Shown: in pieces, positions 5,667 to 52,059 of the stretch | How the letters are laid out: the number at the start of each line of letters is the position of its first letter | How positions within the stretch are numbered: the first letter of the stretch is position 1 | Assembly (NCBI GenBank): GCA_963815495.1 | Contig: CAWFGW010000007.1 | Coordinates: 193,531-257,530 of the forward strand | Direction: 5' to 3' | Origin: an uncultured Cytophagales bacterium | GTDB lineage: Bacteria > Bacteroidota > Bacteroidia > Cytophagales > JAAEPT01 | DNA: 64,000 nucleotides | The notes under the pieces: generated by a model | What the model saw: the letters and a program-made list of their open reading frames with translations, nothing else | The model's database searches: none | What the model was told of the DNA's origin: nothing | Translations under genes and position numbers: made by a program

Positions 5667-5701
5667 TATTTCGTTTAGTTAGTTTATTTTTTTAAGTTTT
5701 A

Positions 5702-8185: not shown

Positions 8186-9155
8186 TTACCAAAAAGATTT
8201 AGGACAGGTTTGCGGTTTCATATTGAAATCATATTTTAAGGTGATTTCATGGCTACCAGAAGTATATTGATTGATTTTAGAAACGGTGTAATCATACGAG
8301 TAGGCTATGTCAAAAATACCAGCATCATGAGCATTCAACCGTATTCCTGCTAATAATATAAAGGAGTCTAAATTTCTATAGGAGCTTCCTATCCAATAGT
8401 CTTTGTAGAAGTGAAATTTCATATTTAAATCCAAGGAAGGTAGTGAAGCGTTCCCCCCATATTTTAACATGATTGAAGGTACTAAATAGTGCTTAACCAC
8501 AGGGCTAGTTTGGTGCCACAAGGGTATTTTGTAGCCAGAAGTCAAATAATAGTGATGAACTAAATTTCCTTGCGAATTTTCTGTCTCAATAAAGTTAACT
8601 GAACGTTGAAATAGTTGGTTGATGGATAAACCAGTAAAAAAACGTCCATCATAGATCCAGAAACCAAAGCTAGCATCAGGAACTCGCTTTGAAATCAAGT
8701 TTACTGCTTCACCTTGTTGATCAAAATTCACTTCACTGAAATCTAACTTCACTTCTGTCATACCCAAAAACACGCCTGCTGCTAGTCGTACATCTTTATA
8801 AAGAGGGAAGTTATAGCTATATGAACCCATCATCGTTGTTTTGCTGATAGGTCCTGTTCTGATCGTTAAAGGCGATGCCTCCTATGGCATGAATCGGGTT
8901 ATTTTTATTTAGTCCAGGCTTTCGTTCGACTCCAATAGGAGCACTGCCGCTAATGTAATAGGAAGTGGGTCCACCTTTAAAATTCACCCATTGTTTACGG
9001 TAGCCTATTGCCAAATCCAAATCACCATCAGTACCGCCTACAGCCGGATTTAAGACATATTGATTGACCATGTATTGGGAAAACTGAACACGTTGCTGAC
9101 CAAACCCGTGCAGCGAGAAAGAAAATGCCAAAAGAAGGTAGAGCGATAACTTCAT
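8186..9155 (-). pseudogene. PorP/SprF-family T9SS outer-membrane protein, interrupted by one frameshift
   Basis: ORF 8817..9179 (true start probably MKLSLYLLLAF at 9155) carries QRVQFSQYMVNQYVLNPAVGG...LAIGYRKQW, typical of PorP/SprF. Another frame reads TGPISKTTMMGSYSYNF, continuous with ORF 8186..8833. The frame change is near 8860-8880. It lies directly downstream of a type-B CTD gene, which is the canonical pairing. Confidence 0.8.
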
Positions 9156-9157
9156 TT

Positions 9158-12100
9158 TTATTCGATAATTAATAACCAACCACTTTCAGAAAAATCAGTA
9201 TGATCGGTGCTACCTAAAAAATCAATCACGTAATAATAGGTTCCAAAAGGTACTTTTGTACCATTGGAATAGCCATCCCACGGGGTTTGATACCCATCAT
9301 CATCTTCAAAAAGGGTATCACCCCAACGATTGAAAATTTTCACATGAGTATGCAGGGTATTTAGGTAAGCCACGAATCACCCATGTATCATTTAAACCAT
9401 CGTTATTGGGCGAAAAGGCATTCGGTATATTTACTGCTTTATAGTTTCGAATTGTAATACTTGAACTTGACTCACAGCCTTGTCCTACGGGACCTGTAAA
9501 CACTGTTACTGGGTAAGTAGTCGTTACATTTTCATCCTGAATAGTATAGATTGGATTTTGAACTAATTCTTGGTTAACATCATAAGATAAAAAGCCAGGG
9601 GTTGTAGAACGGTAACTTAAATAATTATCTTCTTCCCAATGGATTAGTGAAACCGTATCATATTTCAAATCATCAATCTGAAGGGGCAATTGAATTTCCT
9701 TTTGATTACCATATGTCACATCCATGAACTCGATTGGAAATGAAGTAAACACTTGTTCATATATTTTTATAGTAATGGAATCGGTGTGAGACGGACAATA
9801 ATCATTGGAAACAGTTAAAAAATATTCACCCGATGCTGTGGGATGTTTTAAATCAAAAGGTACAATAGTGGATTCCGAAGGATAAAAGTTCAGTGACCAA
9901 ATTTCCACTCATAGTTAGAAATCTCCTCATTCTGAACACCTTTCAATGTGATTACCCTATCCGTTTCACAGATGATGGTATCCGAAGCTTTAATTTCAGC
10001 AAAAGGCATTTTTATTACGTCTTGAAACACCAGGTTAGAAACTGCTGTATCTTCATATAAGCATTTATAATTCGAGCGCACCTTTACATAAATAGACGTA
10101 TCAATGCTTGTGTTTAAGTCAAAATAAGGCAAGCTAAAATCGGTGTTAAGCAACTCACCCTTTTTATTGAAAAAATAATATTCAGGAGCATCCCCAGCAG
10201 CAAAATTAGTATGCGTTTGAAAACGAACACTTGTCCCGACACAAACAGGTAACATTTCATCCAGCGACACTTCTGGATAATAAGCCTGCTCTGGCACAAG
10301 TGTTAAAGCAGCTTTGGTTACAGGGCATACACCATTAGAGGTAATCCACTCCGCCACTAAGGTGTCTTCAATACTTAAAAAATTTGTAACTAAAGATGAA
10401 GCATCGTTTTCTTCTATTTCAATATCCCCAGTATTTTTTATTATCGTCCAACTACCATTACCAATAGCTGGAATATTTCCAGTCATTCGTTTATCATCAT
10501 CAGTGATACAGTAAACCAGCGTATCAGTAAGCGCATTGGAAACAAGAGCTTGTGTAGGTTTCAAATCGACTGGAATTTCAAAGTTACCGATATCCCCCAC
10601 ACAGCCTTCCCTGGTTGTTTCAACCACACTTCCTACTATATTCACGTTTCCAGCTATAAAGTGAATGGAGTCACGCTGGTCATCTTGATTAAAAACCTGA
10701 GCTCCGTTGTCAATCGCCCACGTAAAGGTACTTTCATCAAACCCAGAGACATATAACGAATCGTTGAAAGTTTCACAAACCGCATTAATAGGAAAAGGCT
10801 GTGGCGCTATTGGTGTAGTATCTACCACAACTTTTATTGGCGACAACTCACTTTCGCACAACCAATTTTTCTGACTCACAAAAAAGGAATCAACAGTGAC
10901 CTTGCGATAAAAATCAGGTTTTTGGGCAAGTAAAATAGTATCGCCACTATACCAACGAATGGAATTGAGCGGGTCGGTGGTTAGCACAAAGTCAGGCAAA
11001 GTCTCTACCTTTTGGCAATAGCGTATGGTGTCTTGTACTAAAGGTGCATCAGGTACATTGACGACTTCTACCTGACGAACTAGTGTATCACGGCAACCTT
11101 CCATGCTTGTAAATTCATATTTAACATCATAAAATCCTTCTGTTGCTGGGGGAATAAAATAGCCATTGCTTAAGGTTCCAGTACCTGAAAAGAAGCCACC
11201 TTCTGGGCTAACGTCTTGAATTTTTATGGTATCAGAAGATTCGCATGTTGGAGCTACGGGAGAAAAATCTACTTCCACATAATCATGTACAATAGTTTTA
11301 GCTTTTGCTCTACCTACTTCTGTTCCATCCAGACTGGTTATTTTCGCATAATAATCACTACTGTCAATCAAACTTATAGGTAGTGTTAAAGGAATTGTAA
11401 AATTACTATCGCTAAACCATTCCACCTTAGAGGTTACACCACCAATTACATGCGTATTAAACTCGGATAAATCAAAGCTGGAATAAACAGCGGGATTACT
11501 TTCGACATCCGAGCAGATTTTAAAAAGTGTATCTGTTGCATTCAAAGAACAAGGAAACACTTCTAAGGTATCCGTTGTGGTACAGTATTTTTGAGTGACG
11601 GTTAAGACGTATTTCCCTGCTGTTTTAACCGTCACAGCAGCGCTTAAATTATCAGGTAAAAATGGTTCACCTGAAGGCCCTTCCCATGAAAATGAAGTAT
11701 CTGCAGTAGTTGTAGAACCGAGAAGATTTGCCTCACCAGTAATACAGTCTAATTTAACATCGAGGCCAGCATCCGCTGTAGGCACGATTCCTGAAGTAGT
11801 GACAAGAACGGTATCCGTCATGTTGCATCCGCCATCTTTAGCTTTTAATACATATTCACCCGGAATATCTACATCGGTAAACAATGCTTCGGAGTTTGGT
11901 AAATAATTTACACCTGTTGGACCTTCCCAGAAATAGCTATCCGACTGAGACAGTGCTGAAACGGCTTTTAAAGAAGTATGTGTATCGCCACATTCGATGT
12001 TTGCATCTGGTCCGGCACTAATGCTATCCACCACAATTGAATCAGCTGCTGATAAAGTAATTTGACAACCTTCTGGACTTACCAGAATTAAGTTGGGAAG

Positions 12101-38906: not shown

Positions 38907-38927
38907 CTTTTCCTTATCTTTACTTTG

Positions 38928-39584
38928 ATGCTTAGTCAAACAGAAGAAAATTACATTAAAGCTATCTACCATTTAACAAATGGAAAAGAGCAAAGTGCTA
39001 CTACAAATGCATTATCAGAAGCGCTAAAAACAAAGCCAGCTTCCGTAAGCGATATGCTAAAAAAGCTGTCGAGCAAAGACCTCATTAACTACGAGAAATA
39101 TAAAGGGGTTTACCTTACCAAAGAAGGCTTAAAAGACGCCTTAAAAATCATTCGAAAACACCGCTTATGGGAAGTCTTTTTAGTGGACAAACTCAATTTC
39201 GCATGGGATGAAGTACATGATATCGCTGAACAGCTGGAGCACATTCAGTCGACCACGCTAACCAACAAACTCGACAAGTTTTTGGGTTACCCAAAGAACG
39301 ACCCACATGGTGACCCCATCCCTACTGCAGAAGGAGAAATCAGTAAACATTATCAACTGACTGTTACTGATCTGGAACCGGACAACAAAGCGGTGGTAGT
39401 CGGTGTGAAAGATTCTTCTGCGTCCTTTTTGCAATACCTTAATAAAATTGGTATCTCCTTAGGTTCCGAACTTTTTGTGCTTGAACAAATCGCCTACGAC
39501 CAAAGCTTAGAAATTCAACTTGAAAACAACAAACAAATCATTTCAAAAGAGGTAGCCAAAAACATCTATGTATCCACTCATTAA
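38928..39584 (+). CDS. DtxR/MntR-family metal-dependent transcriptional repressor
   Basis: ORF 38925..39584, with ATG at 38928. TEENYIKAIYHL, the HTH segment ALSEALKTKPASVSDMLKKL, and RKHRLWEVFL plus a C-terminal FeoA/SH3-like domain match the DtxR family. Confidence 0.85.
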   Translation: MLSQTEENYIKAIYHLTNGKEQSATTNALSEALKTKPASVSDMLKKLSSKDLINYEKYKGVYLTKEGLKDALKIIRKHRLWEVFLVDKLNFAWDEVHDIAEQLEHIQSTTLTNKLDKFLGYPKNDPHGDPIPTAEGEISKHYQLTVTDLEPDNKAVVVGVKDSSASFLQYLNKIGISLGSELFVLEQIAYDQSLEIQLENNKQIISKEVAKNIYVSTH

Positions 39585-40473
39585 AATTTGCCTAATATCT
39601 ACCCTACTTGTATTTTGTTCTTGTTCAGATAACAAACCCAGGTCTGGTAAATTAAAAATTGTGACCACCACAGGAATGATTGCTGATGCGGTAGAAAACT
39701 TGGTAGGCACGCAAGCAGAAGTCACTGCCTTAATGGGACCTGGTGTGGATCCGCACTTGTACAAAGCCGCTCAAGGGGATTTAAAACTCTTACAAGAAGC
39801 AGACATCATTATTTATAACGGATTACATCTAGAAGGGAAGATGACCGACATATTCGAGAAATTATCGCGAATTAAATCGGTGTACGCCATCTCAACAGGT
39901 TTACCCAAAGATCGATTACGCAAGGCAAGCGAACAGGACGCAGTAGACCCTCATATTTGGTTTGACATTGACTTGTGGTCATTAGGTGTTAAAAACCTAA
40001 ATGAGTGGCTTAAAAAGACACAACCAACTATAACTATTTCCACAACTGGCAATGGCTATTTCCAACAACTCGATAGCTTACATCAGGCAACCTTAGCGTC
40101 TATCAATACTATCCCAGAAGGCCAACGCCTCCTTATCACCGCGCATGATGCTTTTGGTTATTTTGGCGATGCGTATGGCATTGAAGTAAAAGGCATTCAA
40201 GGCATCTCCACGGTGGCGCAAGCCGGACTACGGGATGTCAACAACCTCATCAACCTCATTATTGAAAGAAAAATCAAAGCAATTTTTGTGGAGTCGTCCG
40301 TGCCCAAGAAACAAATTGACGTGATTGTTGAATCATGTAAAGCACAAGGACATCAACTCGTGATTGGTGGCACACTGTACTCAGACGCTATGGGTGCTCC
40401 ACAGACCCCTGAAGGTAACTATATCGGTATGGTCACACATAATGTATCTGTCATCGTTAACTCATTAAAATGA
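39568..40473 (+). CDS. Metal (Mn/Zn/Fe) ABC transporter solute-binding lipoprotein, TroA/ZnuA cluster
   Basis: 301-aa ORF with a lipoprotein signal (LLVFCSCS) and metal-ligand motifs DPHLY and DPHIWFD. It overlaps the regulator gene by 17 nt. Confidence 0.85.
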   Translation: MYPLIKICLISTLLVFCSCSDNKPRSGKLKIVTTTGMIADAVENLVGTQAEVTALMGPGVDPHLYKAAQGDLKLLQEADIIIYNGLHLEGKMTDIFEKLSRIKSVYAISTGLPKDRLRKASEQDAVDPHIWFDIDLWSLGVKNLNEWLKKTQPTITISTTGNGYFQQLDSLHQATLASINTIPEGQRLLITAHDAFGYFGDAYGIEVKGIQGISTVAQAGLRDVNNLINLIIERKIKAIFVESSVPKKQIDVIVESCKAQGHQLVIGGTLYSDAMGAPQTPEGNYIGMVTHNVSVIVNSLK

Positions 40474-41258
40474 TAATTCAAGTAGAAAATCCTGCCATTG
40501 AAGTTCATGACTTAACGGTGAGCTATCAAAACAAACCCGTCTTATGGGCGATTGACTTCAGCATTCCCGAAGGAACTTTAGGAGGAATTATTGGACCCAA
40601 TGGTGCTGGTAAATCAACTTTGGTGAAGTCCATTATGGGCTTAATCGAAACCTCCAGTGGTTATGTTAAAATACTGAATCAGGACTTAGCTGATGTGCGC
40701 TTAAAGGTGAGTTATGTGCCCCAACGTGAATCGGTGGATTGGGATTTTCCTGCTTCGGTGTTGGATATTGTGATGATGGGGCGATACGGTAAACTAGGAC
40801 TTTTTAAACGGCCTCAGAAGGCGGATAAAGAAGCAGCAATCGAATGTCTCAATGATGTAGGTATGGCTGAATATGCCAACCGACAAATTGCGCAGCTATC
40901 TGGCGGACAACAGCAACGTGTGTTTTTAGCGCGTGCACTAGCACAAAATGCGGATATCTACTTTATGGATGAACCATTTGCTGGCGTAGATGTAGCAACA
41001 GAACAAGCCATCATTACGCTACTTCAAAAAATGCGTGACGCGGGAAAAACTGTTTTAGTAGTCCACCATGACTTACAGTCTGCTCAACATTATTTTGATT
41101 GGATTGTTTTGCTCAACCAACGCCTTATTGCTTCAGGTCCTATTGAAAAGGTATTTACAGCTGAATTGTTGCAAGAAACTTATGGCGGTAAATTAACTTT
41201 CTTAAGTCAATTAGGAAACTTATTTAAACGAGAGGATTTACCTCCGAGGAAAGCTTAA
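40470..41258 (+). CDS. Metal ABC transporter ATP-binding protein
   Basis: 262-aa ORF with Walker A GPNGAGKST, signature LSGGQQQR and Walker B IYFMDEP. It overlaps the SBP gene by 4 nt. Confidence 0.9.
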   Translation: MIIQVENPAIEVHDLTVSYQNKPVLWAIDFSIPEGTLGGIIGPNGAGKSTLVKSIMGLIETSSGYVKILNQDLADVRLKVSYVPQRESVDWDFPASVLDIVMMGRYGKLGLFKRPQKADKEAAIECLNDVGMAEYANRQIAQLSGGQQQRVFLARALAQNADIYFMDEPFAGVDVATEQAIITLLQKMRDAGKTVLVVHHDLQSAQHYFDWIVLLNQRLIASGPIEKVFTAELLQETYGGKLTFLSQLGNLFKREDLPPRKA

Positions 41259-41285
41259 GTAGTCTTGAGCTTCTTCTCTGTACTT

Positions 41286-41508
41286 GTCATTTCAATCCCA
41301 ATGGATCTGTGGTTATTCTTTCCAATCCCGATGGCTATCGCGGAGAGGAATCTAACTGAGCCAAAGACAACCATCTGTCTCTCAACTATTAGTCAACAGG
41401 AACGCGTTGCAAACGCGCTCCATCGTCTTACTAAATGCAGTTACAAACTGCTAGTACATCAGTAGACTTAAGTTACGCTGAAAAAGCTAAACTTAAGCCA
41501 GAGAGGGG
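41286..41508. repeat. Intergenic mosaic repeat block A1 (partial R1, R5, R3 modules)
   Basis: Starts 28 nt after the ATPase stop. Contains GAGAGGAATCTAACTGAG (41344-41360), GGAACGCGTTGCAAACGCGCTCCAT (41399-41423, identical to 49221-49245) and the roughly 75-nt R3 module (41434-41508, near-identical to 42225-42298). Confidence 0.85.
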
Positions 41509-41745
41509 AGTGATTACAAACAACAAAAAGTAATTGAAGAATGTATTGAAACAGATGAAGAGTTACTCGATGAATACCGCGATACGTTGGATGAGACAGG
41601 CTTAACAGAGGATATGATAGCAATCATTTCTCGACATATGAAAGAAATTGAAGAAACTATCACTGAATTAAAAGAACTACATAAAAAAGGTGACCATGAA
41701 GATTCAAATGCATATAGTACTAAAATTTTAGATGCTGGTGTATAA
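41497..41745 (+). pseudogene. Orphan 3' gene fragment (acidic helical peptide) without a credible start
   Basis: The frame is open from the in-frame TAA at 41494-41496, inside repeat R3, to TAA 41743-41745. It translates AREGSDYKQQKVIEECIETDEELLDEYRDTLDETGLTEDMIAIISRHMKEIEETITELKELHKKGDHEDSNAYSTKILDAGV. The first possible starts are TTG 41587 and ATG 41614. It is followed by its own strong terminator. Confidence 0.35.
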
Positions 41746-41784
41746 TATTCACTGTCATCGATAATTTAAAGCTGGATAAAAAAG

Positions 41785-41824
41785 AACCCCACTTATCGTG
41801 GATGATAAGTGGGGTTTTGTGTTT
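41785..41824 (+). terminator. Rho-independent terminator
   Basis: AACCCCACTTATC (41785-41797), loop GTGGAT, GATAAGTGGGGTT (41804-41816), then TTTTGTGTTT. The 13-bp stem is perfect. Confidence 0.75.
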
Positions 41825-42150
41825 ATAGAACTGTCATTTGCGGATTTTAGGAGCTCTCGGGATGGAAATAATATTGGTGTTTTGCGATGGGTGGATTCCA
41901 GAATATTGTCATTCCTTTTCAGTAGTGTCATTCGTTTTAAATACTGTCATTCCTAGCCTGCCTTGCCGGCAGGCAGGGAACGAGGATCCAACTGAGGCGG
42001 AGACGGATTTTAGACTTACGATTGGTGGATTCTTCCTTCGTCAGAATGACAAATAGGATTTGAATTGTCATTCCTTTCCATCACTGTCATCATTCCGAGC
42101 CCGCCTTGCCTGCAGGCAGGGGACGAGGAATCTAACTGAGGTGGAGACGG

Positions 42151-42215
42151 GTAACATTCGTTTTCAGTACTATTAAGGTCACAAGGACCGCTACGCTTAA
42201 CCTTGCGCCATAGGG
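42151..42215 (+). repeat. R2 module copy A (65 nt)
   Basis: GTAACATTCGTTTTCAGTACTATTAAGGTCACAAGGACCGCTACGCTTAACCTTGCGCCATAGGG. It differs from copy D only at TATT-AA-GG versus TATT-GTA-GG. Confidence 0.95.
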
Positions 42216-42341
42216 TGTGTATTAAACGCAGTTACAAACTGCTACAACATCTGTAGACTTAAGTTACGCTGAAATAGCTAAACTTAAGCCAGAGGGGGTT
42301 AGTCACGCATTACCGTTGCACTCAAATGCGCGCCAGCAGGG

Positions 42342-42397
42342 GTTTCAGTACTATTGTAGGTCACAAGGACCGCTACGCTTAACCTTGCGCCATAGGG
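42342..42397 (+). repeat. R2 module copy B (5'-truncated)
   Basis: TTTCAGTACTATTGTAGGTCACAAGGACCGCTACGCTTAACCTTGCGCCATAGGG, identical to the corresponding part of copy D. Confidence 0.95.
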
Positions 42398-42533
42398 TGA
42401 ATTTGACTCATGGCCATCAATTGCTTTTCACCTCATTCAAATTGACCCGAAAAGTGGTGCGGAACCTACCTTCATCAAAAAACTATTTACTGCCAAGGCA
42501 AAAAACTTCTTTAAAAACAAAATAAGTAGTCCC

Positions 42534-42941
42534 TTGCGAAACAACCCCGCTTATGTGTTTAACCTATTAGACACCAGCACAAAGGTGGATGCAGGTAAAC
42601 TCACCGAACAGCTAAACGAGAAGAAAGAGGAACCTACTATTACCAAAAACCCTTACTCACCTATTAAAGAGGTAGATTTACACATCGAAAACCTACGCGA
42701 AGACTTTGAGTTTTTAAAACCCGAAGAGATTCTCCCTATCCAGCTTGAATTATTTGAAAAAGCACTAGACTCTGCCATTGCTGACAACTGTGATGAAATC
42801 ACGTTTATTCATGGTGTTGGTGCTGGTAAGTTGAAATACGAAATCAGTAAAGTACTCAGCAAACACCCGCATGTGAAGTTTTATCAAGATGCTGATAAAC
42901 AAAAGTTTGGTTATGGTGCAACTAAGGCAACACTTGCGTGA
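42534..42941 (+). CDS. Smr-domain protein, apparently 5'-truncated at a repeat boundary
   Basis: 135-aa ORF from TTG 42534. The C-terminal EITFIHGVGAGKLKYEISKVLSKHPHVKFY matches the Smr domain. The same frame is open upstream to 42396, immediately after an in-frame TAG inside the R2 copy. Confidence 0.7.
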   Translation: MRNNPAYVFNLLDTSTKVDAGKLTEQLNEKKEEPTITKNPYSPIKEVDLHIENLREDFEFLKPEEILPIQLELFEKALDSAIADNCDEITFIHGVGAGKLKYEISKVLSKHPHVKFYQDADKQKFGYGATKATLA

Positions 42942-42964
42942 TAGTTAATTTTAATAGAAGCGAA

Positions 42965-43176
42965 CCTTAGACTTACGATTGGTAGATTCCGGACAAGCTC
43001 CATTCCATTACCGTCATTCCGTAAAATGTGAGAAACGAGCATTTATGCAGAATCTAACTGAGGCGGAGACGAGGTTCTGGCTTACGATGGGCAGATTCCG
43101 GACCTGCCTTGCCAGCAGGCTGGCATGTTTCACTTCGTTGCACAATTCCGGAATGACGTGTGAGAGATGAATGACG
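42965..43176. repeat. Intergenic mosaic repeat block B (R4-type hairpins, partial R1)
   Basis: Contains TTAGACTTACGATTGGTAGATTCCGGAC, CCGTCATTCCG, GAATCTAACTGAGGCGGAGACGAGG, and CTTACGATGGGCAGATTCCGGACCTGCCTTGCCAGCAGGCTGGCATGTTTCACTTCGTTGCACAATTCCGGAATGACG (43081-43158). Confidence 0.9.
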
Positions 43177-43183
43177 TGCTAGA

Positions 43184-44584
43184 CTATTTATTCCCTTGTA
43201 CTAAATACCAATCTACCCATGCATCCATTTGCTTTACTGAGTTGGGTCTTAATAAAATCTCTCGTTTTTCATTTAATAAATACATGGTTGGTGTGCCGAA
43301 AACATAGTAATCTTTTACGGGTGTGCTATTCCATTTTTGATAATCGCAACTGGAAATAAAAGGAAATTCAGATGTGAAATTCTCAAATAACTCTTTGCTT
43401 TCATCGAGCGATATATAGACTACTTCAACACCTTGTGCATTCCATTTTGAATACTGGTTGGCGATTTCAGGAAGCTCTTCTGTACATTTCTGACACCAAC
43501 TAGCCCCAAAAACAACAACCATGTATTTATTCTTTAGGTCAGAGAGTTTATTGGGAGCTTTATTTTGTCCGTATCCTGGAGCAAAATTATCGCCACTGAA
43601 AAGTATGTCAGGTGCTATATTTCCCTTTTTCATGGCTCGGTAACTTTCTAGCTGATTTGCAAGGTCGCTGTTTATGGTGCAGCTTGTTTCATTTAATACT
43701 TTTAATGCTAAATACTCTGAAGCCTTAAACAAACTATGGCGCTCCAATAAATCGAACAGGTAATCGGTAACTTCGTTGAGTTTTTTCTCGTCTTTTGTGA
43801 GACGTTCCATCATGGCATCAATGGAAATTTTCATTTCAATAAACACAGAATCTAAGGAACGACCGCTATTTTCTAATAACCAAAAGTGGTTATCTATGGC
43901 ATCTTTAAATAAACCGCTTTTGTACAATCGCTGATCTGTGTAATCTATCGCTCTAAAGGCGGCTATCGTTGCCGGCATTTCTTCTGGGCGGTATTGTGCA
44001 ACAACGGATACGGAACTTACTAACTTACGTGTAGGCAAAAACCAACTAATGTAGCTGTCGTTAGGTAGCTGATTTAAAAATGATTCATCTTCATCTTTTA
44101 TACGTTGTTTTTCTGATTGAATGGCTTTGTTGGGTGTTTTTTGAACTGTAAATAAAGTGTCTAATTTATAAATTTTCTCTAGGTACACCCAAGCACTCAA
44201 CGCTTGTTCCCTTCGAGGATGCTCTCTGGCGTATTGCTCAAACCATATATTTTCTTGTCCTTTGGCGATTTTTATGGATGCTATATTACTCAAAGACGCT
44301 CCAACTAATTCAATATCCTCGCCACTTAAAATTACAAACAATGGTTTTTCATCAGCCGACATTAGGTAACCGACTCCATAATCGGCTTTAGAATAGGTGA
44401 GTTTAAAATTGCCTTTATCATCAATGGTTGATGATGAAATTGGGTAGGTTGTGAGACCGTTGAAACCTTCAAGTTTAATGGGCTGGTTGGCGAGTTGCGA
44501 TAAATTGCCGATGATGTTTTGTGCACTTAAAAAAGTAGTGCAAAATAGACTTATTAATAGTATTGATAGTATTTTTTTCATCAC
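43184..44584 (-). CDS. Secreted thioredoxin-fold (TlpA-like) thiol-disulfide oxidoreductase
   Basis: 466-aa ORF with a signal peptide and CxxC motif FGASWCQKCTEELPE in the C-terminal thioredoxin fold. The architecture parallels 28928..30418. Confidence 0.8.
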   Translation of the reverse strand: MMKKILSILLISLFCTTFLSAQNIIGNLSQLANQPIKLEGFNGLTTYPISSSTIDDKGNFKLTYSKADYGVGYLMSADEKPLFVILSGEDIELVGASLSNIASIKIAKGQENIWFEQYAREHPRREQALSAWVYLEKIYKLDTLFTVQKTPNKAIQSEKQRIKDEDESFLNQLPNDSYISWFLPTRKLVSSVSVVAQYRPEEMPATIAAFRAIDYTDQRLYKSGLFKDAIDNHFWLLENSGRSLDSVFIEMKISIDAMMERLTKDEKKLNEVTDYLFDLLERHSLFKASEYLALKVLNETSCTINSDLANQLESYRAMKKGNIAPDILFSGDNFAPGYGQNKAPNKLSDLKNKYMVVVFGASWCQKCTEELPEIANQYSKWNAQGVEVVYISLDESKELFENFTSEFPFISSCDYQKWNSTPVKDYYVFGTPTMYLLNEKREILLRPNSVKQMDAWVDWYLVQGNK

Positions 44585-44668
44585 GTGCTAATTAAACAGG
44601 GTTGTTGCCAGCATATTTAATCATAATCGGCTAATTATTTCATTCGACCCTGTCTCGTTACAAATATC

Positions 44669-45092
44669 GACATTCCTTTTCAATACTGTCATTCCGTTTC
44701 CATTATTGTTATTCTGCTAGCCTTGCCAACAGGCAGGACAAAGGAGGAATCTAATTGAGGAAGAGACGGGTAACATTCGTTTTCAGTACTATTGTAGATT
44801 ACAAGAACCGCTACGCTTAACCTTGCGCCATAGGGGATTCCGGACAAACACTCGTTCCTCGTATTTTCCGGAATGACGTGGTATATTAATCTTGTAACGT
44901 CATTCCGGAATTTCGCAACGAAGTGAAGAAATGTCCGGAATCTCCCTATCGACAACCAGAATGGATTAAAACAAAAAGGAATGCTTTCTTCAAACATTCC
45001 CTTTCTTACTACTTTCCAATAACCGAAGCTACAAGCTTCTCTCGTATTAAAAGACTTAAGCTCACTTCGTAAAGCTTAAGCCAGTTGAGGGG
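44669..45092. repeat. Intergenic mosaic repeat block C (R1, R2, R4 direct, R4 inverted, degenerate R3)
   Basis: R1 ends at 44769, R2 is 44770-44835, R4(+) is 44836-44878, R4(-) is 44898-44961, and an R3-like CTTAAGC...GCTTAAG hairpin is at 45045-45092. Confidence 0.9.
44770..44835 (+). repeat. R2 module copy C (66 nt)
   Basis: GTAACATTCGTTTTCAGTACTATTGTAGATTACAAGAACCGCTACGCTTAACCTTGCGCCATAGGG, with 3 substitutions relative to copy D. Confidence 0.95.
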
Positions 45093-45117
45093 ACAAATCG
45101 CTTCGCTAATCAAAGTA

Positions 45118-46308
45118 TCATTCCTTAAGGCAACGAACAGAGACCCCGACCGCTCGGAGGCTGGTGCCCATGCCGGCATTGCTGCTAATGAAGAAGAGGT
45201 GGCGCGAACTAGTGCTGCTAACCGAACTGCTCCAATAGAGGCCGAAGGTACCGACATTGCTGAGCGAACCATTGCTGTCGAGGCGGCGGCCCGCCATGGG
45301 CAATTTAAGCAGAGAGGCAAAAGCACCTACTCCGTTGTTGCTGCTCCAACTTGTGCGTTCTGCGTTTAATTCTTCTTCTGTAGGTAAACGATACCCACTT
45401 GGGCAAGGGTTGTTTACCCCATTTACGCCTTCCCAAAGATTTAAGTTTTGTGTACTGCGCCAATCGTAATTCCCTGAGTTTACAGTTATAAAGTTACCAT
45501 GCCCTGGCTGATCCGTAGTGCTTAATGTACTAGTAGTTGATGATGTGCGACACTGATGCCCATCTGCACCGCGTCCCCATTGGTATAAATCTCCATAAGA
45601 AGCTGCATCGGTGCTGCTTGTGGCTACCTGTGTAGCACCAAGGTTTCTATCCATCCATGTTTTTCCTGTAATTGGGTTGGTAACATCCACTATTTCAGTT
45701 GGTTCTCCACAATGAACCGTACCAACTGGCCATGGATCCGTTACAGTTCCTCCCCCATTCTCCAAGGCCTCAATTCGCGCAATCAAAGCATCTACATATC
45801 CTTTTGTTACTGCGTCTTTCGCCTCAGTAGGATCAGCTAAATTTTTAATTTGAACAGCACCAGCATCGTTTCCTTGGGTTAATACATTTGTTAACGAAAC
45901 ATTAACGCTACCTGCACTTTTTGCATATTCTGCATAAGGCACTGTCGCAAATTGCATGGTTCCCATTACTACGTAGTTGGTTCCACCGGCTAAGTCCATT
46001 TCGGTGCGTAAGAAGGTGCTGCTTGCGCCCCAGTTAATGGCGTTAAAGTCGTTGCTGCTTGTTCCTTTGCCTACTACTAAGTTGATGATGCCATTCGCAT
46101 CGGAAGTTACGGTATGGGTTTCTGTATAGACTACTGTTCCATTTACTGAACCGGTGGTAATGGATAACCGCAAACCGATGGCTTGGTTGGCTACTAAGTC
46201 GTTGTTGGCGTTGCGAGCCACCGCTTGGTAATTGATTCCTTCGGTTACTTGAGCGAAGGAGAGAACAGCGGTTAAATAAGCTAGGAGAAGGATGGGGATT
46301 TTTTTCAT
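45118..46308 (-). CDS. Secreted Fib_succ_major (FISUMP) lectin-like domain protein with the shared N-terminal GINYQA module
   Basis: 396-aa ORF with a signal peptide. The N-terminal module is GINYQAVARNANNDLVANQAIGLRLSI. The C-terminal half (WMDRNLGA ... YGDLYQWGR ... GYRLPT.EEL ... LKLPMAGRR ... GLYWSSS ... GVSVRC) matches the Fibrobacter succinogenes major paralogous domain pattern. Confidence 0.8.
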   Translation of the reverse strand: MKKIPILLLAYLTAVLSFAQVTEGINYQAVARNANNDLVANQAIGLRLSITTGSVNGTVVYTETHTVTSDANGIINLVVGKGTSSNDFNAINWGASSTFLRTEMDLAGGTNYVVMGTMQFATVPYAEYAKSAGSVNVSLTNVLTQGNDAGAVQIKNLADPTEAKDAVTKGYVDALIARIEALENGGGTVTDPWPVGTVHCGEPTEIVDVTNPITGKTWMDRNLGATQVATSSTDAASYGDLYQWGRGADGHQCRTSSTTSTLSTTDQPGHGNFITVNSGNYDWRSTQNLNLWEGVNGVNNPCPSGYRLPTEEELNAERTSWSSNNGVGAFASLLKLPMAGRRLDSNGSLSNVGTFGLYWSSSVSSTSSRHLFFISSNAGMGTSLRAVGVSVRCLKE

Positions 46309-46353
46309 GGTGGTGGTATTGTTTGGTAATGTTATGTTCGTTTTTATGATTGG

Positions 46354-46532
46354 GAGATCCTTCGTTGCACTCAGGATGACGGTTAAAATTTTAATTTCGT
46401 TTTTATTATTTAAAGATTCTTCACTACGCTCCTGCCTCGCGGCAAGGCGGGCGGTTTCGAGTTTTTATTTCGTTTTCAATATTTACAGATTCCGGACATT
46501 TCTTCACTGCGTTACGAAATTCCGGAATGACG
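46354..46532. repeat. Intergenic mosaic repeat block D
   Basis: Contains GAGATCCTTCGTTGCACTCAGGATGACGG, AGATTCTTCACTACGCTCCTGCCTCGCGGCAAGGCGGGCGG, and R4(+) AGATTCCGGACATTTCTTCACTGCGTTACGAAATTCCGGAATGACG (46487-46532). Confidence 0.9.
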
Positions 46533-46543
46533 TTTCTAGACTA

Positions 46544-48880
46544 TTATTGTTTCACAATTTTATGAAATTCAGACAGCCCTTGGTCGTCTGTTATTCTTAA
46601 GTAATAAACACCTGAAGACAAATCAGTAGGTACGGTCACCTGACCTGCTCCTTGTATTGTTTCTGTGTATTGGGTAACTCCGTTTAAGTCTATTAATTGA
46701 ATGCTGAGGTGTTGGTCTGAGTCTCGTGTATTGTTTATCGTGATATACTCCTGAAATGGGTTGGGTGAAATACTGATACGTTTAGTTTCATAATTGCCAA
46801 CACGTGTGCTCGGAAGCGAATTGGTTATAAAAAACTCATTATTAGAACGATAGCCAGAATTCACCTCACAATATGCCATAATAGCCCATTTGTATGATGT
46901 TGAAGGTAATAATGATGGTAATTCAAATTCGATATCTGTGGTTTCAACATATTTCCAATTCGTATGAGCCGTTTCTGAATAGCGAATATTATACCTTATA
47001 GCACCGTCAACACTATTCCACCTCAATGTGGCAGTATTATCATTCGTTAAAACTTCTCTCCTGTTTATAGGTGTTTCACAAATATCACCATTTGTAACAA
47101 ACACATGGTTTAATGTAGTAAAACTAGTCGGAATATATGCTCCGTCATCACAAACAGTAACGATTTGCCATCGATAGTAAGTAGCTGAAATTAGGTTTGA
47201 AATTTTGATGGTAGTTGCTCCAGATACTCTCAGATAATTCCATTGATCGATTCCAACTGCCTTTTTATAGCGTATACGATAGGTTTTCCCTGGGCTCCCA
47301 GACCATGATAAATAAGCTGATGTTTCTGTTATACTAGTTGCTGAAAGATTATAGGGTGCTCCACAAACCGAAGTATTCCTAGTGTTGAAAGTAGCTGTCG
47401 CTGATTCTATTGTTTGATATTCAGTGCAATAAGTTAACACCTTCCATTCATATTGAGTACCAGTATTGAGGTCAGCTCCTAAAATTAATAGCTCTTGATT
47501 TGATGAATTAATTTCAAGCCAAACAGATTCATTTACACTTTTATACTTTATCGTGTTGGGCAGTAAATCAGAAGTATTACTCCAGTTCAATTTTACTGAA
47601 TTATCATTATAAACAATTGATTCTAAATCCGTTGATTGATTGCATGGTTTGTTCTCTGTTTGTAAAAAGCCTTGGTTTAACTTGGCATCTGTTTGTTGAA
47701 AATAAGCGTTCACTGCGCCTCCGATGGCTATGGTTACCATTGCTGAGCTCTTTGTGTAGGTTGTACCACCTGAATTAACCGTTTGGTGATAGGGTTTTTC
47801 AAGACAAAAATTAGATGTTTCAAAAACATGTTCTTTAGAAACAGTACAACCCGTTGAAGACGTGTATTGAACAATCACTTTTTCTGCGGTGGTGATTTCA
47901 GTTCCAAAATGTACCGATACGGTTTCACCCTGAGTAGATAATAATGAACCTTCGCCTGTGTACACCCAATTATATACACCAGCATCGGTATGGTTGGCAG
48001 CAACGGATACTTCTATGGTGCTGTTGGGGCAAACTTGGTTGTCTCCAACCACATCAAATTCATATACTGGAATTGTAATTGATGTTGATGCGCTAACACT
48101 ACAGGCTGCCACTGTTCCTACAACTTCAACAGATTCAGACGACAAAGGAGCATACGTTATGGTCCGACTAGCACCTATTAGCTCGCCTGCAACAAACCAT
48201 TGATAAGTATCAAAGGTTGTTTCATTGGCAGTGAAACTTATTGCTTCACCTGCACAAGCACTCAATTGGGTATAGTCAATACTAATTCCTGTCGTCAGGC
48301 AATTAAGAATACTTGCATAGGCCTCTTGTGTATCATCTTCTGTATTATCCAACACCTGATCGGCAGCTGTTATTTCTGCTACCAAGTGGACATTATTCAT
48401 TTCCCCTTGAACACCTGATGTTGCGTCTATAGTAATAATTAACTCAAAAGTTGCTCCTGCAGCAATTTGTGGCACAACTACGTTTGGTGAGTTTAAGTTT
48501 GAACTCACTCCACTAGGTAGTTCGAGGTTTATCGTCACATTGACATTCGTTGCCGTTGTAGTGCTTACATTGGAAACGGTGATTTTAAAAAATTCTACTC
48601 CCGTAAATGGCGCCTGACCTACTTCTGTCATTACTTCAATAGCAACTGCCAAGTCTATTTCATTATCACTCCCTAATTGAAAACCTTGATTTAACGCATT
48701 TTGATAGGAAGCATCCACAGCTCCACCTAGTGAAACGGACAAGTAACCTGCTGAATTTGAAAGTGTGCCACCACCAGAATTCACGGTTTGATGAGGCATA
48801 TTTTGGGCAAAGGAAAGCTCGCTTAAAACTAAAAGTGCTATTGAGACTAAAAATACACGAACAAAATTTCCGCTGGTCAT
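46544..48880 (-). CDS. T9SS cargo: Ig-like region plus four FN3-like domains plus type-A CTD
   Basis: 778-aa ORF with a signal peptide. FN3-like units are present (e.g. APYNLSATSITETSAYLSWSG...YRIRYK). The C-terminus ISISPNPFQEYITINN...GVYYLRITDDQG...HKIVKQ is a T9SS sorting domain. The N-terminal motif QTVNSGGGT...LNQGFQ recurs internally. Confidence 0.75.
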   Translation of the reverse strand: MTSGNFVRVFLVSIALLVLSELSFAQNMPHQTVNSGGGTLSNSAGYLSVSLGGAVDASYQNALNQGFQLGSDNEIDLAVAIEVMTEVGQAPFTGVEFFKITVSNVSTTTATNVNVTINLELPSGVSSNLNSPNVVVPQIAAGATFELIITIDATSGVQGEMNNVHLVAEITAADQVLDNTEDDTQEAYASILNCLTTGISIDYTQLSACAGEAISFTANETTFDTYQWFVAGELIGASRTITYAPLSSESVEVVGTVAACSVSASTSITIPVYEFDVVGDNQVCPNSTIEVSVAANHTDAGVYNWVYTGEGSLLSTQGETVSVHFGTEITTAEKVIVQYTSSTGCTVSKEHVFETSNFCLEKPYHQTVNSGGTTYTKSSAMVTIAIGGAVNAYFQQTDAKLNQGFLQTENKPCNQSTDLESIVYNDNSVKLNWSNTSDLLPNTIKYKSVNESVWLEINSSNQELLILGADLNTGTQYEWKVLTYCTEYQTIESATATFNTRNTSVCGAPYNLSATSITETSAYLSWSGSPGKTYRIRYKKAVGIDQWNYLRVSGATTIKISNLISATYYRWQIVTVCDDGAYIPTSFTTLNHVFVTNGDICETPINRREVLTNDNTATLRWNSVDGAIRYNIRYSETAHTNWKYVETTDIEFELPSLLPSTSYKWAIMAYCEVNSGYRSNNEFFITNSLPSTRVGNYETKRISISPNPFQEYITINNTRDSDQHLSIQLIDLNGVTQYTETIQGAGQVTVPTDLSSGVYYLRITDDQGLSEFHKIVKQ

Positions 48881-48970
48881 TGACTTACTTAATAATAATG
48901 TAGCTAAAGTAGCTGGTCTTTATTTTATAAACAAACGTTATTGTTGTTTTTTAAAGATGGCGTTAATTAC

Positions 48971-49318
48971 CGACATTCCGCCCGCCTTGCCACGAGGTAG
49001 GGAACGAGGAATCTAACTGAGGCGGAGACGGGTAACATTCGTTTTCAGTACTATTGTAGGTCACAAGGACCGCTACGCTTAACCTTGCGCCATAGGGATT
49101 CCGCAACAAACGCACGGAATGACGTTACATACCCTACCGTCATTCCGGAATTGTGTAGTGTAACGGAAGATGCCTGCCTGCCGGCAAGGCAGGTCCGGAA
49201 TCTCTTGGTCGAAAACTACGGGAACGCGTTGCAAACGCGCTCCATTGGGGGGGGCTGGCTTACGATGGACAGATTCCAGATATTGTTTCTCTTCGTTGCA
49301 CAATTCCGGAATGACGTG
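48971..49318. repeat. Intergenic mosaic repeat block E (R1, R2, short R4, inverted R4, R5, R4), the most complete array
   Basis: R1 is 48971-49031, R2 is 49032-49097, ATTCCGCAACAAACGCACGGAATGACG is 49098-49124, R4(-) is 49138-49203, R5 is 49221-49245 and R4(+) is 49259-49316. Confidence 0.9.
49032..49097 (+). repeat. R2 module copy D (66 nt, reference copy)
   Basis: GTAACATTCGTTTTCAGTACTATTGTAGGTCACAAGGACCGCTACGCTTAACCTTGCGCCATAGGG. Confidence 0.95.
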
Positions 49319-49352
49319 AGAGAGAGGAATAACGTTATGGGTTGGGTTTGTG

Positions 49353-49655
49353 TCATAAAAACTCCCTTACCTCTTCGAATAAATCTTTCCATTCTGGGTT
49401 AAGCTTATTTATCAAGTTTTCTTTCCATTCCCTTCGCCATTTTTTGAGTTCTTTTTCTCTTTCGATGGCTTCTTCTATTGTTTGAAAAATTTCATAATAG
49501 ACTAGGTCTGTACAGTTGTACTTACTGGAAAACGCTGAGCCTTCGCCATTTTTGTGTTGCCAACTGCGAGCTGAAATATTTGATGTCACTCCTGTGTAAA
49601 GGGTTGTTCTGTTTTTGTTTGTGACAATGTAAATATAGCCTCCTTTTGGGTTCAT
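49353..49655 (-). CDS. Small stand-alone GIY-YIG nuclease-family protein
   Basis: 100-aa ORF. GGYIYIVTNKNRTTLYTGVTSNISARSWQHKNG ... EEAIEREKELKKWRREWK has the GIY...YIG/YTG, R, E and N elements of the GIY-YIG (COG2827-like) family. Confidence 0.85.
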   Translation of the reverse strand: MNPKGGYIYIVTNKNRTTLYTGVTSNISARSWQHKNGEGSAFSSKYNCTDLVYYEIFQTIEEAIEREKELKKWRREWKENLINKLNPEWKDLFEEVREFL

Positions 49656-49756
49656 CGTTTTCTATAAAAGTGAAAAGTGAATTTATGATTAAGGTGTTTA
49701 TTTAAATTGTAAATAACAAATTTCTAAAACGTCATTGCATTTTTGTTTAGCGATTG

Positions 49757-49867
49757 AGAGATTCCAGACTTCCGCTACACTGCACCTGCCTGCCGGCAAG
49801 GCTGGTCCGGAATCTGACTGGGATGGAAACAATTGTTTCACTTCGCTACACAATTCCGAAATGACGG
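49757..49867. repeat. Intergenic mosaic repeat block F (composite R4 with embedded GC hairpin)
   Basis: AGATTCCAGACTTCCGCTACACTGCACCTGCCTGCCGGCAAGGCTGGTCCGGAATCTGACTGGGATGGAAACAATTGTTTCACTTCGCTACACAATTCCGAAATGACGG. Confidence 0.9.
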
Positions 49868-49883
49868 TTCTCCTACTTACATA

Positions 49884-50939
49884 CTAATACAACGACTTCG
49901 ACTTCATCAAGTTGATGCGCACACCAACTTTAAAGGTCATAAAATTCAAATTAGACTGATGCGCTGGGAAAAATTCTAAAATCTCGGCTTGGTTTTTTGC
50001 AAAGCTACTGTGGTAATCTAGCTCAGCATAAATCGACCAGTTAGCACTCACCTGATAATCGGCACCGAGACCTGCTTTATAACCTATCATGGAAAATAAA
50101 CCTGTTTGAATTTCTGGTTCTTCACGCTCTATTGATTCTACTAAAATATCGTCTTCCGTTTCCACGCTATATGTTGGCTGAAGTTTACCATTTTCCAATG
50201 ATCGCACATTATAAAACCCTTTTTGGTTGACACCTGCAAAGGAATAGGTTAACCCCACCAAACCGTATGGTCGGAACTTAGCACGTTTGTTCCCGAGATA
50301 ATATTTTGCTTCAACGGCTAGTGAAACTGCTCGAACTTTTAGGTTTTCTTTGGACAGCGGCAACACTTGAATGTTTGCTCCAAAGGAAACATTTGGCGTG
50401 TAATTATATTCACCCCCTAAGCCTAGTGATGGTGCAGGTTGGTAGTTTGCAAATAGGTTTTCAGTTTGCCCTGCACTGTTAAGTTGTTCTTGCTGACCAG
50501 TAACGACCACACCGCTAAACACCGACATACTTACTTTGCTGCCTAAGTCCGATTTGCGCTTTGGATAACTCCCTCTTTTTTTCCGCTTTTTAGCGTGTTT
50601 TCCTCCGTAAAGTGATTTCGATTTCCCTTTTAATGAGTGTTTTCGCTTTCGCTTCACGTAGTTGTCACGCTTTTTACGCTGCGCTTTTCTTTTCTTTAGG
50701 CGTTTATTATTTATTTTAGCCTTTGCTTTTCCTTTCTTGGTAGTCGGTTTATAGGACTTATTTTTCTTTCCTGACTGTCGTCCGATATACTTTTTCTTCG
50801 CGCCATACACCCCTTTTCTGGTATTATTTACACTAAATTGGGCGTGGCTTGATTGGATACTGATAATTACTAACAGTATGACGAGTATTAACTTTGTGAA
50901 AAAGCTAACTAATATTCGTTTATCCCAACCTTTACTCAT
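49884..50939 (-). CDS. Outer-membrane beta-barrel (OmpA-N/OMP_b-brl-like) protein with an extremely Lys/Arg-rich N-terminal region
   Basis: The track ORF starts at TTG 50954. ATG at 50939 gives MSKGWDKR followed by a hydrophobic signal (LILVILLVIISIQSSHAQ). Residues about 45-135 are a K/R-dominated low-complexity tract (KKGKAKAKINNKRLKKRKAQRKKRDNYVKRKRKHSLKGKSK...KKRKKRGSYPKRK). The C-terminal roughly 200 aa show alternating beta-strand patterns ending in an aromatic residue. Confidence 0.6.
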   Translation of the reverse strand: MSKGWDKRILVSFFTKLILVILLVIISIQSSHAQFSVNNTRKGVYGAKKKYIGRQSGKKNKSYKPTTKKGKAKAKINNKRLKKRKAQRKKRDNYVKRKRKHSLKGKSKSLYGGKHAKKRKKRGSYPKRKSDLGSKVSMSVFSGVVVTGQQEQLNSAGQTENLFANYQPAPSLGLGGEYNYTPNVSFGANIQVLPLSKENLKVRAVSLAVEAKYYLGNKRAKFRPYGLVGLTYSFAGVNQKGFYNVRSLENGKLQPTYSVETEDDILVESIEREEPEIQTGLFSMIGYKAGLGADYQVSANWSIYAELDYHSSFAKNQAEILEFFPAHQSNLNFMTFKVGVRINLMKSKSLY

Positions 50940-50950
50940 ATCGGTGGCTA

Positions 50951-51949
50951 TCAATCACACCCCTGTATCTCTACGGGGGTGTTGTTACAGCCTTCTTTAA
51001 TCTCTATTGTTTTTACCAAAACACATCCATCTACATCATTGGATTTCACACTCAGGACATAAGTCCCTACTGGTCTTGTTATTCGCAGTAGGTTAGCTGG
51101 ATTTGTGTCACAATTACCTGGTGCTGCTGCACGTCCTGCAGGAATAGTTCCAACAGCATCGTTATCGTTAAGAGTAACGGTAAAATTACCCCACGAGCCA
51201 AAGGTAGCATTATTCATCCAAAAGTTGACATGTCCAAAGCCACATTGTGAAATAGGGACCAATATAAGTTTGTTTTTTGCATTAGTGACATCGATTTCTC
51301 CCTGCCACACACAACCGTTATTACCCACAGCATAGTAGGTATGTTTCACCGCATCGGATTGGTATAGCACAGGAACAACGTTAGCATCTGTGATACTTGT
51401 TGGTGCTGTCTCACTGAGGTTTATGATGGAACCGACCGAATTTCCGTCAAAGAAAATTTCTATTTCCAAGTCATCACTATTTGCTCCGACTAAAGAATAG
51501 AATCCGATATTGGTTCGTTCAAAAGGTGTCAGGGTAATAATTACACTAGTTGTAGTTCCGTTTTCGAGTAGGTTTTTGAGGGTGTTTTGGGTGAAGTAGT
51601 TATTTAATGGAATGGATTGACCACCAACATTTTTATTGTATTCGATTAAAATCCAATAGTTTTTGTCAGAGTCTAAATCTGTGAAAGTGACTTGACTTCC
51701 GTTTAAAAGTTGATTGTTTATATTCGTACCGTAAATGCCATTTTGCCAGGCGTTTCTAAAGTTAGTGGAATCATCAAAAAGATATACTTGCACATTATTA
51801 CCAGGGATATCTAGTCCTTGATCATCTTTTACTTTGATGATTAAGTTGGTTGCTTCTGGCTCTATTTCGGTTTTCTTACAGCTTGTGAAGTAAACTAGTA
51901 GGCCTACTAAGCTGAGGTAAAGAAAACCGTATTTTATGTTTTTGGTCAT
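50951..51949 (-). CDS. Hypothetical lipoprotein (Cys-containing C-terminal domain)
   Basis: 332-aa ORF with signal plus lipobox (LLVYFTSCKK). No family motif was recognised. Its stop lies 11 nt from the downstream ATG, or overlaps the alternative TTG by 4 nt. Confidence 0.5.
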   Translation of the reverse strand: MTKNIKYGFLYLSLVGLLVYFTSCKKTEIEPEATNLIIKVKDDQGLDIPGNNVQVYLFDDSTNFRNAWQNGIYGTNINNQLLNGSQVTFTDLDSDKNYWILIEYNKNVGGQSIPLNNYFTQNTLKNLLENGTTTSVIITLTPFERTNIGFYSLVGANSDDLEIEIFFDGNSVGSIINLSETAPTSITDANVVPVLYQSDAVKHTYYAVGNNGCVWQGEIDVTNAKNKLILVPISQCGFGHVNFWMNNATFGSWGNFTVTLNDNDAVGTIPAGRAAAPGNCDTNPANLLRITRPVGTYVLSVKSNDVDGCVLVKTIEIKEGCNNTPVEIQGCD

Positions 51950-51982
51950 TTTTGTTCTAATTTTTTCGTTTTCACGATTAAG

Positions 51983-52050
51983 AGATTCCAGACAAATGCT
52001 CGTACCTCACATTTTCCGGAATGACGTCAAGGGCAGAAAGGAATGACGTG
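51983..52050. repeat. Intergenic mosaic repeat block G (R4 plus extra GGAATGACG head)
   Basis: AGATTCCAGACAAATGCTCGTACCTCACATTTTCCGGAATGACG (51983-52026) and AGGAATGACGTG (52039-52050), ending 9 nt from the stop of the 3,036-aa gene. Confidence 0.9.
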
Positions 52051-52059
52051 TTTTAAATA

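Follow-up and report, generated by a model that had tools for sequence, protein, structure and literature searches.

We analysed a 64,000-nt stretch of DNA (the window) from an uncultured Cytophagales bacterium of the Bacteroidota (GenBank assembly GCA_963815495.1, contig CAWFGW010000007.1, positions 193,531 to 257,530 of the forward strand), in which a run of intergenic gaps is filled with hairpin repeats and re-used spacer modules. Amid these repeats lies a gene for a small GIY-YIG nuclease that resembles SsnA of Neisseria, and the repeats carry flanks like those of the SsnA target, the Neisseria Transformation Sequence (NTS). The Ssn/NTS system was first described in 2025, and in several phyla motifs of a related kind (Ssn-related motifs, SRMs) flank the genes of Ssn homologs (Chenal et al., Nat Commun; PMC11893778). 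We propose that the locus is probably an Ssn/SRM locus, with an Ssn-family GIY-YIG gene set among its cognate oriented hairpin repeats and spacer modules. This reading is built on the repeats, which have NTS-type flanks, show covariation and can form hairpins, on the gene, on its association with hairpins across 82 loci and on the occurrence of the same gene cassette in unrelated contexts.

The repeat array and the nuclease gene

The modules were surveyed by direct reading combined with a whole-window repeat finder, fuzzy module searches, strict patterns with shuffles and self-BLAST. On a crude gene map, each of the eight intergenic gaps from 41,259 to 52,059 holds re-used modules, and their GC content is 0.36-0.46, whereas that of some thirty gaps elsewhere in the window is 0.17-0.38. 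Self-BLAST of the window returned 27 significant repeat pairs, every one with both members in 41.3-52.05 kb. The exact CGTCATTCC box is found 11 times in the window compared with 0.23 expected, with ten of these copies inside the zone, and at up to one mismatch the 11-kb zone has 22 copies and the other 53 kb eight. A strict gapped pattern for the module called R4 matched seven units, compared with 0.00 expected in shuffles. These results bear out a preliminary description of this DNA, which had placed GC-richer modules in every gap of the zone, had restricted them to about 41-52.1 kb of the window and had counted a 9-mer roughly twenty times.

That description had distinguished modules R1 to R5, and we find R1, R2, R3 and R5 copies at or within a few bases of where it had put them, including the full identity of the two R5 copies. 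R1 tails end at 42006, 42150, 43072, 44769 and 49031, while 41348-41380 holds a partial copy, and a 27-nt core of R2 is identical in all four of its copies. The R4 copies were likewise recovered by the strict pattern, but those described as plus-oriented lie on the minus strand when read in NTS orientation. R1 and R4 are both real, yet they are not separate modules: they are variants of one oriented hairpin unit, of which there are about 16, eight per strand, all confined to the eight gaps. The unit has the form (C/T)GTCATTCC-stem-loop-stem-GGAATC, with flanks as in NTS; in NTS orientation R4 reads CGTC-(ATTCCGGA…TCCGGAAT)-C and R1 reads (T/C)GTCATTCC-[GC hairpin]-GACGAGGAATC. The GTC is kept in at least 13 of the 16 units and the C directly 3' of the palindrome in at least 14, and two subtypes of the 3' flank are seen, TAACTGAGGCGGAGACGG and TGCCCATCGTAAGCC. 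As single-stranded DNA (ssDNA), R4-type units fold in the exact NTS register (z -1.6 to -3.4), R3 and R5 form independent hairpins and R2 is without structure. R2, R3 and R5 are re-used in differing orders across the array (Table 1).

The GC hairpin that had been assigned to R1 does exist, but it is a separate piece (CCTGCCTTGCCGGCAGGCAGG and variants) lying in either orientation within the loops of seven NTS-like units, which gives it the appearance of a second element lodged inside another. An additional GTCATTC half-box stands 18-22 nt 5' of six units; its position is roughly that of the expected Ssn cut site, and it could be a footprint of unit copying. Orphan left arms resembling such half-boxes are also present in two other loci (L149 and L152). 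Module R6 also has partial copies in inverted orientation, at about 41859 and about 49820.

The GIY-YIG gene had been overlooked in the preliminary description and was found by Pfam annotation of the zone's genes. It sits mid-array with units on both sides (U13 and U8 on its 3' side, U14 on its 5' side). The PF01541 domain spans residues 6-80 of the 100-aa protein, which has no second domain. In a family alignment of 16 homologs, Y9, Y20, R30, H34, E67 and N86 are invariant or nearly so, and the spacing of Y9, Y20 and E67 is that of Y6, Y17 and E64 in SsnA of Neisseria meningitidis, shifted by 3. A search for homologs returned 3005 at E<=1e-5, and among those listed nearly all are of about 99 aa and all are single-domain, while UPF0213 structures in the PDB are merely distant matches (E 4.6e-6). 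Judged by domain, size, residue spacing and flanking repeats, the assignment of the predicted protein to the Ssn nuclease family is well supported. Two other candidates were set aside: a weak GIY-YIG-like match at 38964-39221 is in fact a DtxR-family repressor, and the GIY-YIG protein of a paper on the Bacteroidetes SOS response belongs to a separate family, COG0847. A derivation of R2 or the other modules from decayed ssn copies found no tblastn or blastn support.

Table 1. Features of the array and the ssn-like gene by position in the window, with units in NTS orientation; L121 is the locus of the closest relative
Feature	Position	Strand	Remarks
U1, degenerate NTS-like unit (TGTCATTTC...GGAATCT)	41285..41353	+	contains R6
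Module R6 (TTTCCAATCCCGATGGCTATC)	41319..41346	+	also in L121 at 10392-10420
R5 hairpin, copy 1	41399..41423	+	fold z -2.75
R3 double-hairpin module, copy 1	41429..41507	+	ssDNA fold z -3.95
U2, R1-type, GC hairpin in loop	41945..41989	+	z -2.5; half-boxes 5' at 41907, 41926
U3, R1-type	42088..42132	+	half-box 42066
R2 spacer, copy 1	42151..42215	+	ssDNA unstructured, z about 0
R3, copy 2	42220..42298	+	91% identity with copy 1
R2, copy 2, 5'-truncated	42342..42397	+	
U4, right arm decayed (CAGAATC)	43012..43055	+	
U9, R4-type, nested GC hairpin	43094..43158	-	z -2.0; half-box 43168-43176
U5, R1-type, left end of U5-R2-U10 composite	44687..44751	+	half-box 44668
R2, copy 3	44770..44835	+	between U5(+) and U10(-)
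U10, R4-type	44836..44878	-	closes U5-R2-U10
U6, R4-type, CGTC-(ATTCCGGAATTTC...GAAATGTCCGGAAT)-C	44898..44942	+	z -3.0
Degenerate R3-like CTTAAG hairpin	45045..45092	.	read in sequence; terminator scan flags 45082-45053
U16, variant (CGTCATCCTG...AGGATC)	46349..46381	-	similar variant upstream of ssn in L121
GC hairpin standing alone (CCTGCCTCGCGGCAAGGCGGGCGG)	46431..46454	.	
U11, R4-type	46488..46532	-	z -3.4
U7, R1-type (CGACATTCC), left end of U7-R2-U12 composite	48971..49014	+	
R2, copy 4	49032..49097	+	between U7(+) and U12(-)
U12, compact 28-nt, NTS-sized (CGTCATTCCGTGCGTTTGTTGCGGAATC)	49097..49124	-	closes U7-R2-U12
U8, R4-type, nested GC hairpin	49138..49202	+	z -3.2; inverted relative to ssn, 151 nt 3' of ssn
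R5, copy 2	49221..49245	+	between U8 and U13; 25/25 identity with copy 1
U13, R4-type, ssn strand	49272..49316	-	37 nt 3' of ssn stop; half-box 49326
ssn-like gene, 100-aa single-domain GIY-YIG nuclease	49353..49655	-	Pfam PF01541, 1.4e-17
U14, long composite, ssn strand	49760..49866	-	about 105 nt 5' of ssn start
U15, R4-type, right edge of array	51984..52026	-	z -2.3; half-box 52040-52048
Nested GC hairpins	41957, 42100, 43103, 44717, 48981, 49173, 49785		alone at 46431
Half-boxes, plus strand	41907, 41926, 42066, 44668	+	
Half-boxes, minus strand	43168, 49326, 52040	-	
Half-box in L121	10313		

That the modules are non-coding and do not form a CRISPR array, as had been proposed, agrees with our searches: mechanical open reading frames (ORFs) overlapping the gaps of the zone have no Pfam support, and neither Rfam at gathering thresholds nor an ARAGORN tRNA scan gave matches in the window. 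We also considered that the hairpins act as RNA, in the form of terminators, attenuators, mRNA stabilisers or small RNAs, given that they lie between genes and have stable stems and that minus-strand R5 and one R3-like hairpin are flagged as terminator-like. Terminator-like sites number 13 versus 8.9±3.1 expected, and on this lack of enrichment we reject the terminator hypothesis; moreover, the NTS-like units have no T-runs, face either way with respect to neighbouring genes and match nothing in Rfam, and the conserved unpaired 5' box and 3' C indicate a site for a sequence-specific protein. An RNA role is consequently very improbable.

Association of the gene with hairpin units in other genomes

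We next examined 82 loci that encode relatives of the window protein with 45-90% identity. An oriented GTCWY-hairpin lies within 500 nt of the gene in 58 of them (71%) and on both sides in 44, with a hairpin density of 4.4/kb within 250 nt compared with about 0.2/kb beyond 500 nt. Because the background of the generic hairpin detector, about 0.2/kb, is what shuffles also give, the detector is informative near the gene only. The literal Neisseria NTS, at up to one mismatch, is present in 12 of the 82 loci, typically as NTS(+) 15-27 nt upstream and NTS(-) 5-26 nt downstream of the gene, and the proteins in these 12 loci are 46-59% identical to that of the window (tblastn E 1e-28 to 1e-35). Units lie within about 500 nt of the gene in most relatives, and the window, whose strict boxes reach 6.3 kb, stands at the high end.

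The closest relative, L121, with 90% protein identity, shares about 420 nt with the window at 79% identity, made up of the gene with some 20 nt of the sequence before it and the 3' unit, so that U13 is conserved along with ssn. Downstream of the gene the order is that of the window, with a half-box, a gene-strand unit, a ATCGTAAGC flank, a spacer and an inverted unit, while the remaining 20 kb of L121 is unrelated to the window, also at the protein level. In another relative, L170 (a JGI metagenome contig), re-used modules with the unit head GTCTTTGCGAGC occupy every gap around the ssn homolog and its neighbour genes at 1900-9200. L170 is a second array, outside Neisseria, of the kind known there as Neisseria intergenic mosaic elements (NIMEs), and the window array is not unique.

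Units of the same class as those of the window, CGTCATTCCGGAA...TCCGGAATC, were found at no fewer than 120 sites when 185,579 species genomes were scanned with the R4 pattern. The sites listed lie in Alpha-, Gamma- and Deltaproteobacteria, Bdellovibrionales and Bacteroidota; among the matches listed, the commonest form is of 37 nt (CGTCATTCCGGAA-N15-TCYGGAATC), and several metagenome-assembled genomes have three loci each. When the window gaps were compared by BLAST with 120 listed loci, the sequence in common was the hairpin termini only. Across 56 distinct units of diverse genomes the inner stem covaries at all five pairs that the search pattern leaves free, with 90 compensated cells compared with 25±4 in shuffles, a count that none of the 500 shuffles reached; 97% of cells are paired. 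A homolog of the window protein is encoded in two of the 120 listed 8-kb blocks, in both cases 60-123 nt from a unit, a pattern consistent with numerous dispersed copies for each gene.

The strongest competing explanation holds that the array of hairpins was there before the nuclease gene and depends on it neither for its growth nor for any function, the ssn cassette being an inserted passenger and the hairpins a preferred landing site for a selfish GIY-YIG element. It would account for the presence of gene and 3' unit in unrelated contexts in L121 and the window, for the likeness of the NTS-ssn-NTS layout to an insertion sequence and for the dispersed units, which mostly have no ssn in the same 8-kb block (two of the 120 listed have it). 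Across the 82 loci, however, units are about 20 times denser at distances of up to 250 nt from the gene, and their sequence changes with the gene lineage, so that cognate pairs fit better than a generic landing pad, and according to the literature on four species, each enzyme cuts its own repeat. We therefore regard a passenger cassette as improbable.

Comparison with Neisseria and with other repeat families

In Neisseria, SsnA is a 94-aa single-domain GIY-YIG protein that binds NTS, published as CGTCATTCCCGCGMAVGCGGGAATCYRG and containing the repeat dRS3, only as ssDNA and on one strand only (PMC11893778). It cuts a few nt upstream of NTS and makes transformation with DNA that carries NTS less frequent; the GTC immediately 5' of the palindrome is important for cleavage, and the C immediately 3' for binding (PMC11893778). 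The window has in common with this system a single-domain GIY-YIG protein (about 94-100 aa in the two) with the same catalytic spacing, oriented hairpin repeats on both sides of the gene, the repeat flanks CGTCATTCC ... GGAATC followed by C or T, and units that are intergenic and clustered near surface-protein genes; homologs of the window protein carry the literal NTS alongside. As in NTS and the SRMs, the units have a CGTCAT-type box, palindromic arms and a C after the palindrome, and the R4-type folds together with the inner-stem covariation agree with a hairpin formed in ssDNA. The differences are that the window stem is ATTCCGGA/TCCGGAAT instead of ATTCCCGCG/CGCGGGAAT, that its loops are of 9-60 nt compared with about 3 nt in Neisseria, that it has a GC hairpin nested in loops and a 5' half-box upstream of six units, and that its host is a member of the Bacteroidota with genes of the type IX secretion system (T9SS).

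Several results weigh against an Ssn/SRM locus. The published SRM search sequence (HGTCWYN(0-2)YYVSBRHN(0-5)WNVSBRGN(0-2)RNCYNB) has no match in the 64-kb window. The R1-type units have weak folds (z +0.6 to -2.5) and have perhaps decayed, an exact search of JGI metagenome contigs with the R2 27-mer gave no match, and NCBIfam and PADLOC offered no named family for the nuclease. To our knowledge, natural transformation has not been established for most Bacteroidota. As to the first point, the pattern misses the window units because of their loop and stem length (loops of 9-60 nt versus a maximum of 5) and not because of their flanks. It likewise does not match the 37-nt class found in other genomes, and in 33 of the 82 homolog loci it has a match no more than 500 nt from the gene.

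NIMEs consist of dRS3 inverted repeats flanking RS elements and have been described as Neisseria-specific (Bentley et al. 2007, PMC1797815). The window array is like them in its GC-richer hairpin repeats and re-used 50-150-bp spacer families in variable order, in the surface-protein genes adjacent to it and in the bracketing of individual genes by repeats. In U5(+)-R2-U10(-) and U7(+)-R2-U12(-), moreover, R2 is enclosed by a forward and an inverted unit, which is the dRS3-RS-dRS3 layout. It differs in that the window repeat is not dRS3 (ATTCCC-N8-GGGAAT) and that RS-like families are far fewer (R2, R3, R5, R6). The array is NIME-like in its predicted working and is not a member of the NIME family.

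The same two composites could be taken for non-autonomous miniature inverted-repeat transposable elements (MITEs) moved by a DDE or IS110-type transposase. Their inverted terminal units are about 150-190 nt apart, R2 and R5 copies are 95-100% identical, suggesting recent copying, and in the literature dRS3 of Neisseria is the target of a phage recombinase. On the other hand, inspection of the composite ends revealed no consistent target-site duplication, no transposase was found among the ORFs of the zone, and no R2 copy was found beyond the 11-kb zone in the window, in the sampled genomes or in JGI metagenomes, which leaves MITEs with a low probability. Still less probable, and the least so of the readings considered, is a system of repetitive extragenic palindromes (REPs) and their mosaics (BIMEs), spread by a REP-associated tyrosine transposase (RAYT) of the IS200/IS605-like Y1 type encoded elsewhere in the genome. 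The window array is similar to the REP/BIME-RAYT systems of E. coli and Pseudomonas, being an intergenic, clustered mosaic of oriented imperfect palindromes in both orientations, and those systems too are thought to be linked to a domesticated nuclease that recognises ssDNA hairpins. However, the enzyme of the window is a GIY-YIG protein and not an HUH/Y1 transposase, and its conserved head sequence is another one: the units carry the NTS box CGTCATTCC, whereas a REP-type head is 5' GTAG-like. Additionally, the strong and replicated association is with the GIY-YIG gene, and a domain search of the zone's ORFs and proteins detected neither a RAYT nor any other transposase; for this last reason neither REP/RAYT nor classical MITEs are the best fit. 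Of the REP/BIME- or MITE-like system that the preliminary description had suggested, the mosaic hairpins in both orientations stand, but the NTS flanks, the Ssn-type nuclease and the lack of a transposase among the zone's ORFs do not agree with it.

Neighbouring genes and implications

The genes flanked by the array are mixed, comprising Smr-domain, thioredoxin-like, FISUMP/fibre-like, T9SS fn3 and outer-membrane beta-barrel genes, followed by a 3036-aa adhesin-like protein. A link to a surface-protein island, as had been suggested, holds insofar as some flanked genes encode surface proteins, and in L121 and a further relative (L123) the ssn homolog likewise lies among T9SS cargo genes. However, the T9SS and surface genes at 9.9-25.2 kb of the window have ordinary AT-rich gaps without modules, and therefore the array tracks the nuclease gene and not surface genes generally: closeness to ssn, and not surface-protein function, best predicts repeat position.

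At the left edge, a metal-uptake operon (38925-41285) encodes a DtxR-like repressor, a ZnuA-like binding protein and an ABC ATPase, with no permease gene after the ATPase. The array begins 27 nt past the ATPase stop, and its left edge may therefore coincide with a truncation of the operon. The segment 41497-41818 holds an open frame of 82 codons that lacks a start codon upstream of about 41612 and has no genuine match in Pfam. After it comes a strong bidirectional intrinsic terminator (41783-41818), and the frame may be what is left of a gene, caught between blocks of repeats. A small Smr-domain ORF (nicking endonuclease type) of uncertain start lies in the array at 42534-42941, directly after an R2 copy. 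The FISUMP gene at 45118-46308, which has a fibre-like N-terminus and is bracketed by units, has a GC content of 0.47-0.57 versus 0.37 for the window, and because of this difference it is probably foreign DNA.

If it behaves like SsnA of Neisseria, from whose literature both ssDNA cleavage and the effect on transformation are taken, the nuclease would bind each hairpin only in ssDNA and on the CGTCATTCC strand, and would then cut a few nt 5' of the box. Such cutting would shorten incoming ssDNA that bears units, whether it arrives by transformation or by conjugation, and the replacement frequency of the flanked genes would change. The repeats would also be stretches of homology at which recombination could shuffle modules and adjacent genes. 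We infer that the window protein would cut its long-loop units and affect gene exchange, and it is in the same way that we picture how the array may have grown.

A further-reaching possibility, which we consider unlikely though not negligible, is that the ssn cassette is an active insertion-sequence-like element of Bacteroidota that seeds and reshuffles modules, both hairpins and spacers, in all gaps between genes up to about 8 kb away, thereby building NIME-type arrays outside Neisseria that would control the exchange of neighbouring T9SS-cargo genes via ssDNA cutting. If this were true, the copying mechanism would have left its footprints in the long loops of the units, the GC hairpin lodged in them and the half-boxes on the 5' side, and exchange would be controlled via conjugative or other incoming ssDNA in a phylum without established natural transformation.

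For annotation, several spurious 'hypothetical protein' ORFs at the locus are repeat DNA, and in biotechnology the pair of nuclease and repeat is a candidate for a new ssDNA cleavage specificity. Counts of SRM repeats are probably underestimates, because the published pattern misses units with longer stems and long loops. By its sequence features, the array is a Bacteroidota counterpart of the NTS/dRS3 mosaic arrays of Neisseria, which largely explains the finding. Overall, the locus provides a clear Bacteroidota example of a putative Ssn system with its full architecture, namely the gene, its flanking units and a mosaic array that brackets genes, several of them for surface proteins; NIME-like arrays were once thought to be Neisseria-specific, and the window together with L170 therefore indicates that they recur with Ssn genes elsewhere.

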